A DNA stretch of 64,000 bases from an uncultured Nitrososphaerota archaeon (lineage in GTDB: Archaea > Thermoproteota > Nitrososphaeria > Nitrososphaerales > Gagatemarchaeaceae). The position numbers and the translations under genes were made by a program. The notes beneath the pieces are model-generated. The model ran no database searches, was not told where the DNA came from, and worked only from the letters and a program-made list of their open reading frames with translations. Numbering within the stretch: position 1 is the stretch's first letter; the number at the start of each line of letters is the position of its first letter. The stretch covers positions 64,001-128,000 of the forward strand of contig CAWISW010000002.1 in assembly GCA_963838925.1 (NCBI GenBank). The letters run 5' to 3'. Shown piece by piece: positions 2,681 to 64,000 of the stretch.

Positions 2681-3192
2681 ACGAGGATGTCAACTTCAAC
2701 AAGATGAGAGCCAAGTCCCTGGTGGGTCTCTTCCCCGGGATCCATCTGAGGAAGCTCCAGAGGCTCCTCGGCACATCGTTCAGCACGACGCGGTACCACG
2801 TCGACCATCTCTTGCGGGAGGGCGACATTGTCTCTGAGCACGAGAGGGGGTACACCCGGCTCTTCCCTAGCGGGATCGATGAGCAAGACCGGAGGATCTA
2901 CGCCGGCCTGCAGAACAAGAGTACGCGTTCGGTCCTCCATGCACTGATCAGCTCCCAGCCACTGAACAAGGCAGAGATGGCCGACGCAACCCGGCTCAGC
3001 AAGTCGACGGTAGCAAGACAGGTGGAGTCGCTGAAGCTCTTGGAGATGATCGAGCAGGCAGGGTCCCGCGGTGGTCAGCCCGGCTATAGGGTCGTCGACG
3101 CCAAGAAGGTGGCCCTCATCCTGTCGGCCCTGGAGAGGAGCCCCCTGAGAGCGGCCACGGACAACTTCATCGACCTTTGGGGCGGGTACTGA
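2677..3192 (+). CDS. Tandem winged-helix transcriptional regulator
   Basis: PGIHLRKLQRLLG..FSTTRYHV plus a second HTH (KAEMADATRLSKSTVARQV). Overlaps the upstream stop codon. Confidence 0.8.
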   Translation: MNEDVNFNKMRAKSLVGLFPGIHLRKLQRLLGTSFSTTRYHVDHLLREGDIVSEHERGYTRLFPSGIDEQDRRIYAGLQNKSTRSVLHALISSQPLNKAEMADATRLSKSTVARQVESLKLLEMIEQAGSRGGQPGYRVVDAKKVALILSALERSPLRAATDNFIDLWGGY

Positions 3193-30840: not shown

Positions 30841-31364
30841 AGGCAGCCCAGGTCCCGAAGACCGGGGAGGTAAACGTCCTCGTGGGCAAGGTAAACGAGA
30901 TCCTGCAGGACGCGATCGGCGCCCCGCTCCGCTACGTCGCCAACTGGGGCCGGCTCTATAGCCTCTGGCCCGTCCATCTGGAAACGGCGTGCTGCAGCGT
31001 CGAAGTCGGGGCCGCCTCCGGTTCCAGGTTCGACGCTGAGCGCTTCGGGGTCCTGGAGGCTTTCGGCTCCCTGAGGCAGTGCGACCTCATCATAGTGATG
31101 GGCACGGTTACGCGGAAGCTCGCGCCCAGGCTTAAGCTCATCTACGACCAGATGCCAGAACCGAAGTGGGTGATCGCGATGGGCGCGTGCAGTATCACCG
31201 GCGGCCTCTACTTCGACTCTTACAACGTCCTGAGGGGGATAGACGACATCATCCCCGTCGACGTCTACGTCCCGGGGTGCCCCCCGCGGGCGGAGTCTCT
31301 CATCCAGGGCGTCGCCCTCCTCCAGGACAAGATCAGGCACTCCACGAGCCTGCGCGGGACGTAG
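30834..31364 (+). CDS. nuoB: Complex I subunit B
   Basis: TACCSVE, QMPEPKWVIAMGAC...GG, PVDVYVPGCPP. Confidence 0.95.
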   Translation: MVEAAQVPKTGEVNVLVGKVNEILQDAIGAPLRYVANWGRLYSLWPVHLETACCSVEVGAASGSRFDAERFGVLEAFGSLRQCDLIIVMGTVTRKLAPRLKLIYDQMPEPKWVIAMGACSITGGLYFDSYNVLRGIDDIIPVDVYVPGCPPRAESLIQGVALLQDKIRHSTSLRGT

Positions 31365-31993: not shown

Positions 31994-33112
31994 ATGTCCA
32001 CAGCCTTCGAGTACTCCCCTGAAGCAGACAAGATCATGGCCGTGTCCCTCGGGCCGCAGCACCCGGGCGCCGGCCACTTCCGGATACGCCTCTGGCTCGA
32101 CGGCGACTACGTCGTGAGGGCGGACCCGGACCCCGGATACGTCCACAGGGGCGAGGAGAAGATGAGCGAGTACCGCAACTACATCCAGAACGTCCCGCAC
32201 CTCGAGAGGCCGGTCATCCTCGACAGCTCGGGGATACTCTTCGCTTACTCGCTGGCTGTAGACCAGCTCATGAACAACAAGATCCCGCCGAGGGCCGAAT
32301 ACCTCCGCGTGATAATGGCCGAGTTCAACAGGATCATCTCCCACGAGTACTACCTGGGCATCCTCGGGCTCTTCGTAGGCCAGACGACGATGATCACCTG
32401 GTGCATGGGCGACAGGGACCTCTTCATCGACCTCGCAGCGAGGATCGCCGGCGCCCGGGTGACCTTCGCGTACATCATCCCGGGAGGCGTGAGGAACGAC
32501 ATGCCCGAGGGCCTGGAGGTGCAGGCTTTCGAGACGCTGGACTGGTTCGACAAGAGGATGGACGAGTACGAGAAGATATTCTTCAAGAACCCGCTCTGGG
32601 AGGAGCGGTCCAAGGGCGTGGGCGTCTTGACGAGGGACGACGCCATCAAGCTGGGAGCCACAGGAACTGTCCTCAGGGCCTCCGGCGTGGCGCACGACAT
32701 CAGGAAGGCGGAGCCCTACGGCGCCTACCCTGACTTTGACTTCTCGGTGTCCTCCTTCAAAGAAGGGGACTGCTGGGCGAGGGGCTACGTCGCACTCCAG
32801 GAGATGCGCGAGTCCGTGAAGATCCTGAGGCAGGCCTTCAAGAACCTCCCCCCAGGCCCGGTGAGGCTGAAGCTCGGGCCGCAGCCGAGGGTGCCCGCGG
32901 GCGAGGTCTACGCCAGGACGGAGGCCGCCCACGGGGAGATGAGCTACTTCATAGTGAGCGACGGCAGCCCCAAGCCCTACAGGCTGAAGCTGGGCGTCCC
33001 GAGCTTCAAGAACATGAGGACGATACCGCACCTCCTCAAGGGAGTGCACGTCGCAGACATCCCTCCCGTGTATTGGGGCCTCAATTACTGGCCCGTGGAG
33101 GCCGATCACTAG
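31994..33112 (+). CDS. nuoD: Complex I subunit D
   Basis: GPQHPG..H, GYVHRGEEK, RVIMAEFNRI.SH, GTVLRASG, RTEAAHGE, PYRLK...PSF. Confidence 0.95.
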   Translation: MSTAFEYSPEADKIMAVSLGPQHPGAGHFRIRLWLDGDYVVRADPDPGYVHRGEEKMSEYRNYIQNVPHLERPVILDSSGILFAYSLAVDQLMNNKIPPRAEYLRVIMAEFNRIISHEYYLGILGLFVGQTTMITWCMGDRDLFIDLAARIAGARVTFAYIIPGGVRNDMPEGLEVQAFETLDWFDKRMDEYEKIFFKNPLWEERSKGVGVLTRDDAIKLGATGTVLRASGVAHDIRKAEPYGAYPDFDFSVSSFKEGDCWARGYVALQEMRESVKILRQAFKNLPPGPVRLKLGPQPRVPAGEVYARTEAAHGEMSYFIVSDGSPKPYRLKLGVPSFKNMRTIPHLLKGVHVADIPPVYWGLNYWPVEADH

Positions 33113-59919: not shown

Positions 59920-61590
59920 GTGGCGAGACCAAAGATGGTCACGAAATCGCTCGACGACGAGATAATCCTCCTCTGGAAGGAGCTGAGCCCGTCCGGGGCC
60001 TACACCTGCGGCTTCGAGGAGTACGCAGGGAAGCTCTTCATCCCGAGCGAGGAGAACATCCGGCGCGCCCTCGAGCGGGTGAGGTCCCTAAGGAGGAGGG
60101 CCGAGAACGACCTTCAAGCCAGGCTGCTCGACAGCTTGGAAGTCTCGCTCTCGTTCGACGAGCCCCAGCCCGTCCTCGACGACATCGTGGGAAGCATCTT
60201 CAACCACCTCACGAAGGAGGGCGTGAACGAGAAGCACCTCGCGTCCCTGGTTTCGGACTCCATCAAGGCGATAGACGTGACCCAGAAGAGGTTCAGCAAG
60301 CGCAGCGTCCCGGCCGCCGTGAAGGCGCTGACTCTGTACAGGCTGGACGGGGTGATCGAGATCGTAGACGCCATATCCGGACAGATCAAGGGCAAGGAGC
60401 TGAAGAAGGACTGCGAGAGGCTCAAGGACAAGGCCAAGAAGTTCGTCTCCCTCTTCGCGCTACCAGGGTTCGGCAAGGGCACGTTCGAGGAGGTGGAAAA
60501 CGTCTTCAAGAGGACGAAGTTCGAGCTGGGGCGAGAGCGGTTCTACCGCGTCGCCCTCGAGAACGGCATGGACTACGGCGAGACGCCCGACGAGCTCGAG
60601 AAGAAGGCGATAGCGTGGCTCGACGAGGAGCTCCCGCGCTATAGGAACGTCACGAAGAGGCTCGCCAAGGAGTACAAGTGCGAGGCCACCCCCGAAGCGG
60701 TCGAGAAGCACCTTGTGGACAGGGCGAGGCTCAAGCCGAAGGACCTGCTGAGGGTCACCAACGCGATGAGGAAGGTCATCCAGGATTTCGTCGACGAGGA
60801 CGTAGTCAGGATAAACAAGAAGTACAAGACGAAGGTGATCGAGACCCCGGCCTTCCTCTCCGGCATGCTCCCCACGGGGGCCGCCTCCTTCTTCGACACG
60901 TTCACGAAGAAGCCCTTCCAGCTCTACTTCCTCACGACCGACCCCAAGAGGGACCCGGCGAAGTCTGTCTCCCAGCTCATGGACCTCCTGGTTCACGAGG
61001 AGTACGGGCACTGCGTCAACCACTCCAACAGCGTGCTCCACTTCGGAGGCCGCCCTAGCAAGCTCGAGCTCATCCCCACCCTGCTCCAGGGGCCCATCAC
61101 CGAGGGGCTCTCCTTCAACCGGGAGCGGGAGTTCCTCGAGGCCTCGCTGAAGCTCGAGGGCAAGGGGACGCTCACGAGGGCTGAGAAGGCCTACGTAAAG
61201 CAGCTCGAGAAGTACGGCGGGCTCCGCCTGATCAACGCCGAGCTGGAGTTCCAGACGCGCAAGTGGAGGCTCATCAGGTTCCTGCGCGTGATAGGCGACG
61301 TCCGAGTCAACACGGGAAGGCAGACCCTCTTCGAGTTCATCGACTGGGCCCACGCTCGGACGGGCGTCCCTAGGAGCAACGTCTACTACCAGCTCTTCCC
61401 CGCGCACGAGGGGATGTTCCCCGGCTACGCTACCGCCTACGCGGTCGTCGGAGAGGAGATCCACGCTATCGAGGACACGATAATGGACGACAAGGCGAGG
61501 GTGAAGTTCTCGACCTACCTCACGGGAGTGGGCTTCCCACCGCGCAGCATCTACAGGAAGATGCTTGAAGACTTCGCGGCAGGCCTGTAG
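59920..61590 (+). CDS. DUF885-like zincin metallopeptidase-fold protein
   Basis: LVHEEYGH...H, TEG...E, R..RVI.D...N, PGYATAY..G. Confidence 0.6.
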   Translation: MARPKMVTKSLDDEIILLWKELSPSGAYTCGFEEYAGKLFIPSEENIRRALERVRSLRRRAENDLQARLLDSLEVSLSFDEPQPVLDDIVGSIFNHLTKEGVNEKHLASLVSDSIKAIDVTQKRFSKRSVPAAVKALTLYRLDGVIEIVDAISGQIKGKELKKDCERLKDKAKKFVSLFALPGFGKGTFEEVENVFKRTKFELGRERFYRVALENGMDYGETPDELEKKAIAWLDEELPRYRNVTKRLAKEYKCEATPEAVEKHLVDRARLKPKDLLRVTNAMRKVIQDFVDEDVVRINKKYKTKVIETPAFLSGMLPTGAASFFDTFTKKPFQLYFLTTDPKRDPAKSVSQLMDLLVHEEYGHCVNHSNSVLHFGGRPSKLELIPTLLQGPITEGLSFNREREFLEASLKLEGKGTLTRAEKAYVKQLEKYGGLRLINAELEFQTRKWRLIRFLRVIGDVRVNTGRQTLFEFIDWAHARTGVPRSNVYYQLFPAHEGMFPGYATAYAVVGEEIHAIEDTIMDDKARVKFSTYLTGVGFPPRSIYRKMLEDFAAGL

Positions 61591-61707: not shown

Positions 61708-62892
61708 GTGCCCAAACAGATCACGACTTTCGAGGATTTCATCCGGCACATCCTCAAGCTGGTGTTCTGGGTCGTCCTGCTGACGCCCTTGGTCATTCTT
61801 CCAATCTATCTCTTCTTCTACACTCTCTTGGGGCGAAGCTTCGTCAACGTCTTCACGCTCTCGACGAACCCCAGCCAGCTGACGGCCCTCATGACGCAGC
61901 TGATGACCACCGAGCCCACAAAGACGCTCTTCCAGCTCACGACCTTCCCCGGCTTCACGTTTGCAGCCGTCTTTTCGACCGTTTTCATGGTGTGGGTCGA
62001 GCGAAAGTTCATCGCAAAGGTCCAGCTGAGGGTCGGCCCCCAGTACGCTGGGAGATTCGAAGGAATACTGCAGAACTTCGCGGACCTCTTCAAGCTCCTC
62101 TTCAAGGAGATCATCGTTCCGGACGGGGTGGACAAGACCATCTTCCTTTCCATCCCCCTCGCCCTGATGTTCATCTCGGGATCGCTCCTGGCGCTCGTGC
62201 CGTTGGGACCGACGACCTATATCGCAGACCCCTCCATCGGAGCGATCTTCGTCTTCGCGATAGTGAGCTTCACGCCGCTCGTCGTCATGCTCGCCGGATG
62301 GTCGAGCAACAACAAGTACTCGCTCCTCGGGTCCTTGCGGGCGCTCCACCAGATGGTGGCATACGAGATCCCGATGATACTCTCGGTGGTCGGGGTCGTC
62401 GTGCTCTCAGGGTCACTCGACCTGGTCAAGATAGTGTATGCCCAGAGCAGCGTCTGGTTCATCCTTTTCCAGCCGCTGGGGGCTATGGTCTTCTTCATCT
62501 GCGTCCTCGCCGAGCTCGAAAGAATCCCGTTCGACCTCCCCGAGGCCGACTCGGAGCTCGTCGCCGGTTGGCAGACCGAGTATGGCGGCATGAACTTCGG
62601 AGTCTTCCAGCTCGCGACCTACATCAAGTTCTACGCACTGTCTGGCATCTTCGCGACCTTCTTCTTGGGGGGTTGGTACGGGCCGGGGTTCCTCCCGCCT
62701 GTGGGCTGGTTCCTCATCAAGACGTTCGTCGTGATGCTGGCGATGATGCTCCCCAGGGCGATCCTTCCCCGCGTGAGGATCGACGTCCTCTTGAGGGGAG
62801 GATGGACCAAGCTCATGTTCCTCTCCTTCCTCAACCTCTTCATCGCGCTCCTCGTGCTCTCCCTCGGCCTCTATCACATCGGAGGCATCTGA
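61708..62892 (+). CDS. nuoH: Complex I subunit H
   Basis: ERKFIAK.Q.RVGP, GILQ..AD..KL..KE, GWSSNNKYSLLG.LR, AELERIPFDLPEA.SELVAG..TEY.G, LPR.R.D. Confidence 0.95.
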   Translation: MPKQITTFEDFIRHILKLVFWVVLLTPLVILPIYLFFYTLLGRSFVNVFTLSTNPSQLTALMTQLMTTEPTKTLFQLTTFPGFTFAAVFSTVFMVWVERKFIAKVQLRVGPQYAGRFEGILQNFADLFKLLFKEIIVPDGVDKTIFLSIPLALMFISGSLLALVPLGPTTYIADPSIGAIFVFAIVSFTPLVVMLAGWSSNNKYSLLGSLRALHQMVAYEIPMILSVVGVVVLSGSLDLVKIVYAQSSVWFILFQPLGAMVFFICVLAELERIPFDLPEADSELVAGWQTEYGGMNFGVFQLATYIKFYALSGIFATFFLGGWYGPGFLPPVGWFLIKTFVVMLAMMLPRAILPRVRIDVLLRGGWTKLMFLSFLNLFIALLVLSLGLYHIGGI

Positions 62893-62896
62893 GCGC

Positions 62897-64000
62897 ATGG
62901 GCACTCTTTCGGAGATCAAGGGCGCCTGGATCGCAACGTGGTCGGGCATACGGCACGCCTTCAGGCCCAGGATGACCCTCCGTTACCCCGACCAGAAGCT
63001 CGACCTCCAGGGCCCTGGGTATCACTTCGACGCCAAGAACGGCGTTGGCCTCCACGGGTTCAAGGGGAGGCACGTGCTGCGCGAGGAAAAGTGCACGGGC
63101 TGCCAGCTGTGCGCGATAGCCTGCGACGGGGTCGCGGTAGCCATCGAGATGCAGACGATGGTGAGGAACCGCCCCCAGAACAAGAAGAACTACTGGCCCG
63201 CGGTTGACTACGGAAGATGTGTTTTTTGTGGGTTGTGCATAGACCCAGATACTCTTGTGGTGACAAACCCGAGCCTAAAGCGGATGAGCGCCATTTCCGT
63301 GGGAGACCTGGTCCTGACACACACGGGCGCGTACAAGCCAGTCACTAAGGTGTGGGATATGAGGTACACGGGAACCCTCTATCGGATACACGTCTACGGG
63401 AAGCCCGAACCGCTAGTGTGCACCGCTGACCACCCAATAATCGCGGTCTCTCGTCCAAAGTCCAACAGGAAGGACGGGAGGCTTTTGAGGACAACACGGC
63501 CTCTCAAATTCTTCAAACCTGGTGAGTTGAAGCCTGGGGACTATCTTGTGAGCCCCATAGTGAAAAAGGAAGTTCCAGCGACCACTTACGAGAAGGAAGT
63601 TTCGATGTATAAGTTCGGTCTGGTGAAGAGGAAACTTGTTCTTGATGCTTCGCCCGACCTCTTCAGGCTAATCGGCCTCTATCTCGCCGAGGGGTCGTGC
63701 GATGGCGGCAGGCGAGTCAATTTCGATTTCAACCTGAACGAGACCGACACTTTGGTTGCGGATTGCAACGACCTGCTACAGAAGTTCTTCGAAAAACGCG
63801 GCGTCCTAAAGAAGAACGGCAAGAACGGAATCAGGCTGTGCCTAAGCTCCGCAATAGCTGAGGACTTCTTCTCCCAGTTCGGGAAAGGCGCGCCAAACAA
63901 ACGGCTTCCGGATTGGGTCTTCTTCGCAGAGCACGAGAAAATCCTCCAAGTCATGAAAGGAGAGTGGCAAGGGGACGGGTGCAGAATCAAGCAACCTCGT
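62897..64000 (+). CDS. nuoI: Complex I subunit I precursor containing an intein (runs off the window end)
   Basis: ATG 62897. Reads TLRYP, FKGRH, CTGCQLCAIAC, DYGRCVFCGL, then continues in frame into the intein. Not in the ORF track because there is no stop in the window. Confidence 0.92.
   Translation, partial: MGTLSEIKGAWIATWSGIRHAFRPRMTLRYPDQKLDLQGPGYHFDAKNGVGLHGFKGRHVLREEKCTGCQLCAIACDGVAVAIEMQTMVRNRPQNKKNYWPAVDYGRCVFCGLCIDPDTLVVTNPSLKRMSAISVGDLVLTHTGAYKPVTKVWDMRYTGTLYRIHVYGKPEPLVCTADHPIIAVSRPKSNRKDGRLLRTTRPLKFFKPGELKPGDYLVSPIVKKEVPATTYEKEVSMYKFGLVKRKLVLDASPDLFRLIGLYLAEGSCDGGRRVNFDFNLNETDTLVADCNDLLQKFFEKRGVLKKNGKNGIRLCLSSAIAEDFFSQFGKGAPNKRLPDWVFFAEHEKILQVMKGEWQGDGCRIKQPR
63236..64000 (+). 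mobile_element. Intein with a LAGLIDADG homing endonuclease, in NuoI (partial)
   Basis: Block A CIDPDTLV, then VGDLVLTH.G...V, block B CTADHPI, and LAGLIDADG motifs LIGLYLAEG and MKGEWQGDG. Confidence 0.92.

Follow-up and report, generated by a model that had tools for sequence, protein, structure and literature searches.

The solved class-1 inteins of Archaea (Protein Data Bank (PDB) entries 7qsu, 7qss, 7qst, and 2cw7), together with PI-SceI (1vde) and PI-PfuI (1dq3), are built on a common plan in which the Hint splicing domain is split by an endonuclease with two LAGLIDADG motifs. Here, we describe an intein in nuoI, the gene for a complex I subunit with two 4Fe-4S motifs, of an uncultured Nitrososphaerota archaeon. 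The stretch of DNA analyzed, called the window below, comprises 64,000 nucleotides (G000:C2:64001-128000), and its source genome consists of 1.84 Mb in 3 contigs with an estimated completeness of 87%. Like the solved inteins, the NuoI intein has Cys1, a TxxH motif, a terminal Asn, and a Cys at position +1, and its predicted fold agrees with theirs, with weak sequence similarity. It differs from them in its host, which is NuoI and not an ATPase or a polymerase, in its site within an Fe–S motif, in an identity of only 12–18%, and in a penultimate Ser instead of His. We are confident, short of certainty, that the only nuoI gene of this genome contains a complete intein of class 1 that bears a LAGLIDADG homing endonuclease, would splice to give intact NuoI, and behaves as a selfish homing element.

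Two other described systems invite comparison. The published account of the Pyrococcus abyssi MoaA intein presents, as in NuoI, a Cys1 intein in an oxygen-sensitive Fe–S protein, where a Cys of the N-extein is close enough to pair with Cys1. The inteins MCM-a and MCM-d of Haloferacales are described as two adjacent endonuclease-bearing inteins in one gene, with close relatives differing in whether they have an empty, a single, or a double allele, and with mini-intein derivatives, and all of these features recur at two insertion sites in NuoI. The two NuoI sites are only 18 bp apart, however, and each occupied site alters the flank of the other, whereas interference in homing is what has been reported for the MCM pair, where neighboring inteins get in each other's way when they home into alleles that are empty at both sites. 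Sites this close are not without precedent, since DnaB sites a and c are reported to lie two residues apart.

Results

Intein Anatomy and Splice Junctions

The open reading frame (ORF) of nuoI starts at 62897 on the forward strand and is 3′-open at the last base of the window (64000), which ends within the gene. On the source contig the frame remains open to a stop at window-equivalent 64528, giving a precursor of 543 aa. The intein corresponds to residues 114–485 of this precursor (372 aa, window 63236 to window-equivalent 64351). It lies between ...GRCVFCGL and CVDACPFDAL, within the second CxxCxxCxxxCP motif (site b hereafter), and the third Cys of this motif follows directly as the +1 nucleophile. 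The features of the locus, with homologue counts explained in the next section and with AT3 and GC3 denoting AT and GC at third codon positions, are as follows.

62897..63235, + strand: nuoI N-extein, aa 1–113, ending ...VDYGRCVFCGL; ORF whose best NCBIfam match is TIGR01971 NuoI (E 2.9e-23, under its cut-off)
63092..63124, + strand: first Fe–S motif CTGCQLCAIAC, aa 66–76, intact; read from the sequence, with Pfam Fer4 at aa 62–76
63215..63235, + strand: AT3-shifted tract AGA TGT GTT TTT TGT GGG TTG, R107–L113, including Cys108 and Cys111 (positions -6 and -3); putative co-conversion flank
63236..64000, + strand: intein, window part (intein aa 1–255 of 372), continuing to window-equivalent 64351 (G000:C2:128351, L001 2852)
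63236..63274, + strand: intein block A, CIDPDTLVVTNPS, with Cys1 as first nucleophile; Cys1 in 111 of 111 parsed homologues
63413..63442, + strand: intein block B, LVCTADHPII (TxxH); T63 and H66 each in 111 of 111
63659..63700, + strand: first LAGLIDADG motif, LFRLIGLYLAEGSC, with LIGLYLAEGS and acidic residue E152 of the intein; E152 in 109 of 111
63941..63982, + strand: second LAGLIDADG motif, ILQVMKGEWQGDGC, with VMKGEWQGDG and acidic residue D247 of the intein; D247 in 108 of 111
L001 2784–2852, + strand, past the window: intein blocks F and G, ...YRVMDVTVDNDHTFAPLGLATSN
L001 2853–3026, + strand, past the window, stop ending at 3029: C-extein CVDACPFDAL...THG

An earlier note on the window, made from the sequence alone, had read NuoI as ...GRCVFCGL followed by a block A, TADHP, and two LAGLIDADG motifs, and all of these are present in ORF 62897..64000. 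It had also taken the insert to be a homing-type intein within the second 4Fe-4S motif, just ahead of its third Cys, with a motif Cys at +1, and this is borne out by the junctions, the Pfam match, the fold, and an empty allele. The intein C-terminus (...HTFAPLGLATSN|C) and the remainder of NuoI, which that reading placed downstream, were found just beyond the window, with the terminal Asn and a C-extein running to the stop. The insert ends ...DHTFAPLGLATSN, then CVDACPFDAL..., and the C-extein reads CVDACPFDALSMSNDYELSAYDK...THG. Block F lies in VMDVTVDNDHTF, with D354 conserved in 111 of 111 homologues and H361 in 109, and the block G junction is ...ATSN|C, with the terminal Asn and a Cys at +1. 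The insertion is thus in frame relative to contiguous intein-free homologues and has Cys1, TxxH, the block F Asp and His, Asn plus Cys+1, and a Hint fold, as a class-1 intein does.

Motif 1 of NuoI is uninterrupted (aa 66–77), and motif 2 is regained once aa 114–485 are removed. Joining the exteins (113 + 58 = 171 aa) regenerates CVFCGLCVDACP, that is, CxxCxxCxxxCP, and the extein architecture fits a ferredoxin-like protein of ~160–180 aa with two CxxCxxCxxxCP motifs. The ligated 171-aa NuoI is predicted to contain the junction peptide ...GRCVFCGLCVDACPF..., and the predicted spliced product corresponds to the empty allele of G299, GRCVFCGLCVDACPFDAL, from an intein-free member of the window's own family.

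Fold and Conservation of the Intein

On the full gene, the Pfam model LAGLIDADG_3 (PF14528) matched above its cut-off (E 1.1e-11), and on the window part alone Hint and intein matches were only sub-threshold. An AlphaFold2 model of the precursor (m1b0bb43bcbb4), computed from an alignment of 61 precursors with an intein at site b only, gave block means of the predicted local distance difference test (pLDDT) mostly of 82–96 over residues ~112–485, with one dip at 361–368. A Foldseek search of this model against the PDB returned endonuclease-bearing inteins at the top, namely TliVMA (7qsu, E 2.3e-20, template modeling score (TM-target) 0.72), 7qss, PhoVMA (7qst), PI-PkoII (2cw7), PI-SceI, and PI-PfuI. 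There were 66 matches with E ≤ 1e-3, and 14 or more intein chains had E ≤ 1e-12. The endonuclease core matched I-DmoI chains (E 2e-6, TM-target 0.68–0.74). By sequence, the nearest solved chain was PI-PkoII (2cw7, E 1.7e-7).

A protein-collection search with the full precursor as query found 329 proteins with E ≤ 1e-3 among 6435 candidates of 298–951 aa, and 120 of these 329 were listed. The ...N|CxxxCP junction is present in 119 of the 120 listed proteins, the exception (P0112) being a partial record. Site-b inteins could be parsed by pattern from 111 of the 120; the other nine are fragments or have variant starts. The parsed inteins are 51–88% identical to the G000 intein (median 67%). All 111 retain Cys1, the block B Thr and His, the block F Asp, and the terminal Asn, and both acidic residues of the LAGLIDADG motifs are intact in 106. 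Conservation of this kind, short of proving activity, is what would be expected if selection keeps the element competent for splicing and probably also for nuclease action. A divergent NuoI-like protein (P0245, 529 aa) has an intein at the same site (GRCCFCHF|CVTPDT...TAHN|CTDYCP) that is 41% identical. P0245 retains the usual penultimate His (AHN|C), and the Ser of the main clade therefore looks derived.

The source names of the matches are Nitrososphaerota, Thaumarchaeota, or Nitrososphaerales metagenome-assembled genomes (MAGs), mostly with the first two labels, and four named MAG records carry the NuoI intein at 69–82% identity. JGI labels some of the matches [quoted passage not shown] and some are entered at NCBI as “hypothetical protein” or “LAGLIDADG family homing endonuclease.” The earlier description of this intein as rare therefore applies to the literature searched and not to nature, given 329 matching database proteins, many of them automatically annotated as NuoI or intein.

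Distribution and Allele States

The sample used for comparison consisted of 301 genomes of the same class; its tallies include the unpublished G132, G231, and G283, on which no specific claim is based. NuoI was present in 235 of the 301 (N-extein query). An orthologous intein, 61–68% identical, was found in G164 of the same family and in G060, G065, and G067 of genus g62 (family f7). The other 18 matches with E ≤ 1e-30 are inteins of ~30% identity in other genes. All 26 loci read from large ammonia-oxidizer-like families have the contiguous motif.

Among close relatives the allele state varies. Three states occur in the window's own family, with G299 empty, G262 occupied only at a second site (site a, described below), and G000 and G164 occupied only at site b. 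In genus g62 all four states are found: G097 is empty, G048 has site a only, G060 and G065 have site b, and G067 has both. Four further f7 genomes are empty. Similarly, when short homologues of the N-extein were listed, 103 of 120 were intein-free with a contiguous motif, some of them 90–94% identical to the G000 N-extein. Long open frames at nuoI in G203, G117, G242, and G097 were considered as additional inteins and rejected, as they are due to upstream read-through and all four sites are empty.

Intein and Extein Histories

Before any tree was built, a group of 11 proteins, those sharing at least 88% extein identity with G000, was named from the identity comparison. On the extein tree of 97 rows they form one side of a branch with a Shimodaira–Hasegawa-like approximate likelihood ratio test (SH-aLRT) value of 99. 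On the intein tree the same 11 require 3 changes, of which at least 2 are forced by supported branches, and the approximately unbiased (AU) test rejects holding their inteins together (lnL 96 lower, p 0.031). Single cases point the same way: P0011 has an extein 97% identical to that of G000 and an intein only 72% identical, and P0102 and P0113, the hosts that diverge most, have exteins of 46% and inteins of 62–63% identity.

Base composition also sets the intein apart from its host gene. Its GC content is 0.529, against 0.619 and 0.633 for the two exteins, and its GC3 is 0.67, against 0.84 and 0.88. The T-rich codons that the earlier note had observed just upstream of the insertion are real, and they stand out locally: the N-extein comprises 107 seven-codon windows, of which the last 7, abutting the intein, are the only ones with four or fewer GC3 codons, and the C-extein has none (binomial P of ≤2 of 7 = 9e-4, given an extein GC3 of 0.86). 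In the empty relative G299 the same tract reads AGG TGC GTC TTC TGC GGG CTC. Across loci with DNA, the six CVFCGL codons include 2, 2, 3, 5, 4, 5, and 4 GC3 codons in the seven site-b-only alleles, 5 in an allele with both inteins, 4 and 6 in site-a-only alleles, and 6, 6, 4, 6, 5, and 6 in empty alleles. The co-conversion suggested by the earlier note thus fits the G000 copy, as judged from the GC3 test of its flank. The tract fits a short one-sided co-conversion in G000 and two other genomes and is no general mark of occupied alleles. Taken together, allele polymorphism, incongruent trees, and the AT3 flank point to homing.

A Second Insertion Site in NuoI

Site a was found occupied in 47 of the 120 listed proteins. 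It has the form DYGR|C(V/L)PP...(V/I)HN|CVFCGL|C..., placing the intein before the first Cys of motif 2, six residues (6 codons, 18 bp) upstream of site b; the G000 allele carries the site-b intein only. The site-a inteins comprise 21 of full length (364–371 aa, with LAGLIDADG motifs) and 26 mini-inteins (162–182 aa), all beginning with Cys and ending in HN. Carriers include L008 (G067), L012 (G048), and L034 (G262) among the loci, and P0002, P0005, P0024, and P0034 among the proteins. To account for the occupancy of site a, 24 changes are needed on the 97-row extein tree. A recent origin of the site-a intein by copying from site b was considered and rejected, as the two are ~31–32% identical, no closer than either is to inteins of other hosts.

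Two proteins (P0241 and P0243) belong to a NuoI lineage with a site-b intein, with or without site a, that also has a non-intein insertion of ~135 aa between the Fe–S motifs (...VYGFNV...DEDMAHNKK...).

The Host Gene and Its Neighborhood

The precursor scores 81.8 bits with TIGR01971, its best NCBIfam model, and does not reach the cut-off of 113 bits for NuoI. An intein-free relative also falls under this cut-off, with 101.3 bits; the lineage is therefore divergent, and the intein depresses the score further, as judged from these profile scores. The same intein-free relative matches solved complex I subunits, including Nqo9 (2fug_9, 9.8e-16), NuoI (8e9g_I and 7awt_I), and mitochondrial TYKY chains. 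In a whole-genome family search nuoI was single-copy, recovered as two extein halves of one gene, and the remaining matches were weak ferredoxin domains.

The gene is flanked by nuoH and by nuoJ/nuoK, followed by four antiporter-like PF00361 genes, and the genes for NuoB and NuoD are in the same window, ~30 kb upstream of nuoI. The gene directly upstream is

61708..62892, + strand: nuoH, Pfam PF00146 NADHdh (E 2.8e-101)

The nuo genes are thus arranged in two clusters ~30 kb apart, NuoB/NuoD at 30990–31316 and 32375–33106, and nuoH-I-J-K with the four antiporter-like genes from 61708 onward. The gene preceding nuoH (59920–61590) has only a weak, sub-threshold match to DUF885.

Other Inteins in the Group

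The G000 genome has further inteins. SufB (PF01458) contains two LAGLIDADG inteins (C1:38048-42142, L003), a dCMP deaminase (PF00383) contains one (C3:132373-136260, L004), and a P-loop ATPase contains one within its P-loop (C2:586316-589561, L006). The identity of the latter, a candidate by sequence alone, is a reading of GPSGTGKS|...THN|T.

In other genomes, frames of ~690 aa for the beta subunit of 2-oxoacid:ferredoxin oxidoreductase (OFOR; PF02775 plus PF12367) contain a LAGLIDADG intein at DWCPG|C...HN|CGDFGIL, directly before a motif Cys that we take to be a cluster ligand. This intein is 30–34% identical to that of NuoI. Loci L013 (G212) and L030 (G164) were read, L014–L028 were assigned by similarity, and the Pfam matches are those of L013 only. 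The inteins in SufB and in OFOR-beta (PorB, COG1013) are comparable to the NuoI intein in having Fe–S-related hosts, but they occupy other genes and other sites, and neither host is a complex I subunit.

Discussion

The interpretation of the NuoI insert as a splicing, homing intein is built on its anatomy, the conservation of its residues, its fold, a precise empty allele, the polymorphism of alleles, and the incongruence between inteins and exteins. The chemical roles of intein blocks have been set out in review, and the residues found here suggest the following course of events. The 543-aa precursor would be translated with its second cluster-binding motif interrupted. Cys1 would then attack the Leu113 carbonyl in an N–S acyl shift, Cys+1, the third Cys of the motif, would receive the N-extein by trans-thioesterification, and Asn372 would cyclize. 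A final S–N shift would form the peptide bond and release the 171-aa NuoI with its motif intact, and only then would the second 4Fe-4S site be built and NuoI join complex I. The endonuclease, for its part, would cut empty nuoI alleles, and in the course of their repair the intein would be copied in, along with a short stretch of upstream flank.

The usual rule for 2x[4Fe-4S] ferredoxins is that one cluster is held by Cys one to three of a motif and the second cluster by Cys four; the clusters concerned in Thermus Nqo9 are N6b and N6a. On this rule, the precursor would be left without a proper site for one cluster, and the other would probably be perturbed as well. Because nuoI is single-copy and its motif is split, we infer that maturation of complex I must wait for splicing. 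The data are explained without attributing any regulatory role to the intein.

Several observations weigh against this interpretation. The Pfam models for the splicing domain, Intein_splicing (24 bits against a cut-off of 35.8) and Hint_2, were sub-threshold on the full gene, and the assignment of a splicing domain therefore rests on motifs and predicted fold. The penultimate His is absent, being replaced by Ser here and in 104 of the 111 homologues (3 have His and 3 have Lys). The review mentioned above classes this His as “assisting,” and work on splicing in its absence appears among the references given there. The exteins were poorly modeled in the AlphaFold2 precursor (pLDDT 32–52), which may mean that the ferredoxin fold is disrupted before splicing and could equally be due to missing cofactors and a shallow alignment, and so is firm neither way. 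As for mobility, in 92 of 96 comparisons to the G000 protein conservation is lower in the intein than in the extein (14 rows with truncated exteins were dropped beforehand), and the two identities are correlated (r 0.56), from which it follows that much of the history of the intein has been vertical. The trees come from quick LG+G4 searches and the AU p-value is moderate. Finally, of the 7 site-b-only loci with DNA, only 3 have a strong AT3 flank.

One alternative is that splicing is conditional, the intein gating the maturation of complex I in response to redox state or metals. The Cys residues at -3 and -6, Cys1, and Cys+1 are close together in the precursor. The first step would be blocked by a disulfide formed under oxidizing conditions between Cys(-3) and Cys1 or between Cys1 and Cys+1, or by these thiols binding Zn, Fe, or a cluster, and NuoI would mature only when Fe–S assembly is possible. 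The site necessarily provides the means, as it creates C-x-x-C1 (C111-G-L-C114), with a Cys at -6 and Cys+1 next to it in the product, and the Cys arrangement is conserved because the flanks are Fe–S ligands. In the MoaA protein the N-extein Cys is presumably at position -3. According to a review, a disulfide between an N-extein Cys and Cys1 blocks splicing of the MoaA intein, in an oxygen-labile Fe–S enzyme, until it is reduced. Active-site Cys disulfides and divalent cations are among the natural modulators of splicing listed in the review of block roles cited above. However, redox control is shown for the MoaA intein, whereas for the NuoI intein it is an analogy from site geometry, and redox sensitivity is described as not universal among Cys1 inteins. 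The positions of the Cys residues are set by the host motif and need no regulatory explanation, and empty alleles are common in close relatives, meaning that the host does not need the intein. Conditional splicing is thus unlikely at this locus.

This idea can be taken further, to the group as a whole. Its inteins may have become specialized on Fe–S ligand Cys residues (those at sites a and b of NuoI and possibly that in the CPGC of OFOR-beta), and the NuoI thiols (Cys-6, Cys-3, Cys1, Cys+1, and Cys+5) may sense redox state or the supply of metal or clusters as a one- or two-intein gate within one and the same cluster-binding motif. We regard this as a speculative proposal with small chances of being correct. 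If true, it would mean a post-translational checkpoint on respiration, in which complex I is completed only when Fe–S assembly is possible, and not a purely selfish insertion.

A different view, which we consider improbable, is that the intein is an immobile relic that splices, has an inactive endonuclease, and has been inherited purely vertically in this lineage. It is the correlation of intein and extein identities, with the intein the less conserved in most comparisons, that speaks for such a history. Against it, both catalytic acids are intact here as in the great majority of homologues, alleles are polymorphic within genera, the trees are incongruent, and the junction flank is low in GC.

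The missing penultimate His and the sub-threshold Pfam intein models could also be taken to mean that the insertion does not splice, leaving a nuoI pseudogene and a defective complex I. This is very hard to reconcile with 543 open codons, with nucleophiles and block B and F residues invariant in 111 homologues that are only 51–88% identical, with the same architecture in 329 database proteins, with otherwise intact nuo genes, and with the cited work on splicing without this His, and its probability is very small. An assembly or binning artefact that fused a NuoI fragment to an unrelated intein has a negligible probability, as several sources have yielded independent records with identical junctions, on contigs of up to 1.5 Mb, and the four named MAG records have them as well.

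With regard to novelty, full-text literature searches, in which some matches were judged by their listing alone, found no description of a NuoI intein. The main text of a 2016 survey of intein hosts has no mention of NADH or ferredoxin, and the searchable part of its supplement has no entry for NADH, NuoI, or COG1143; that supplement does list MoaA, PorB, and ComEB among archaeal intein hosts. The NuoI intein is thus catalogued only by automatic annotation, and represents a new host and a new site within a well-known class of inteins.

The interest of this intein lies chiefly in a nucleophile that is an Fe–S ligand and in the paired site found in relatives. A practical consequence concerns metabolic reconstruction, since a NuoI score lowered by the intein (81.8 against 113 bits) and generic database labels mean that reconstructions from MAGs can wrongly call complex I incomplete. 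The relatives, whose alleles naturally range over empty, a-only, b-only, and a+b and include two endonuclease inteins 18 bp apart as well as mini-inteins, offer a compact system in which to ask how neighbors help or hinder each other in homing, a question raised by the haloarchaeal MCM inteins. Inteins are also extended to a core respiratory enzyme, and since the splice nucleophile is a Cys of the cluster motif, splicing and Fe–S insertion would have to follow a fixed order, splicing first and cluster insertion afterward.

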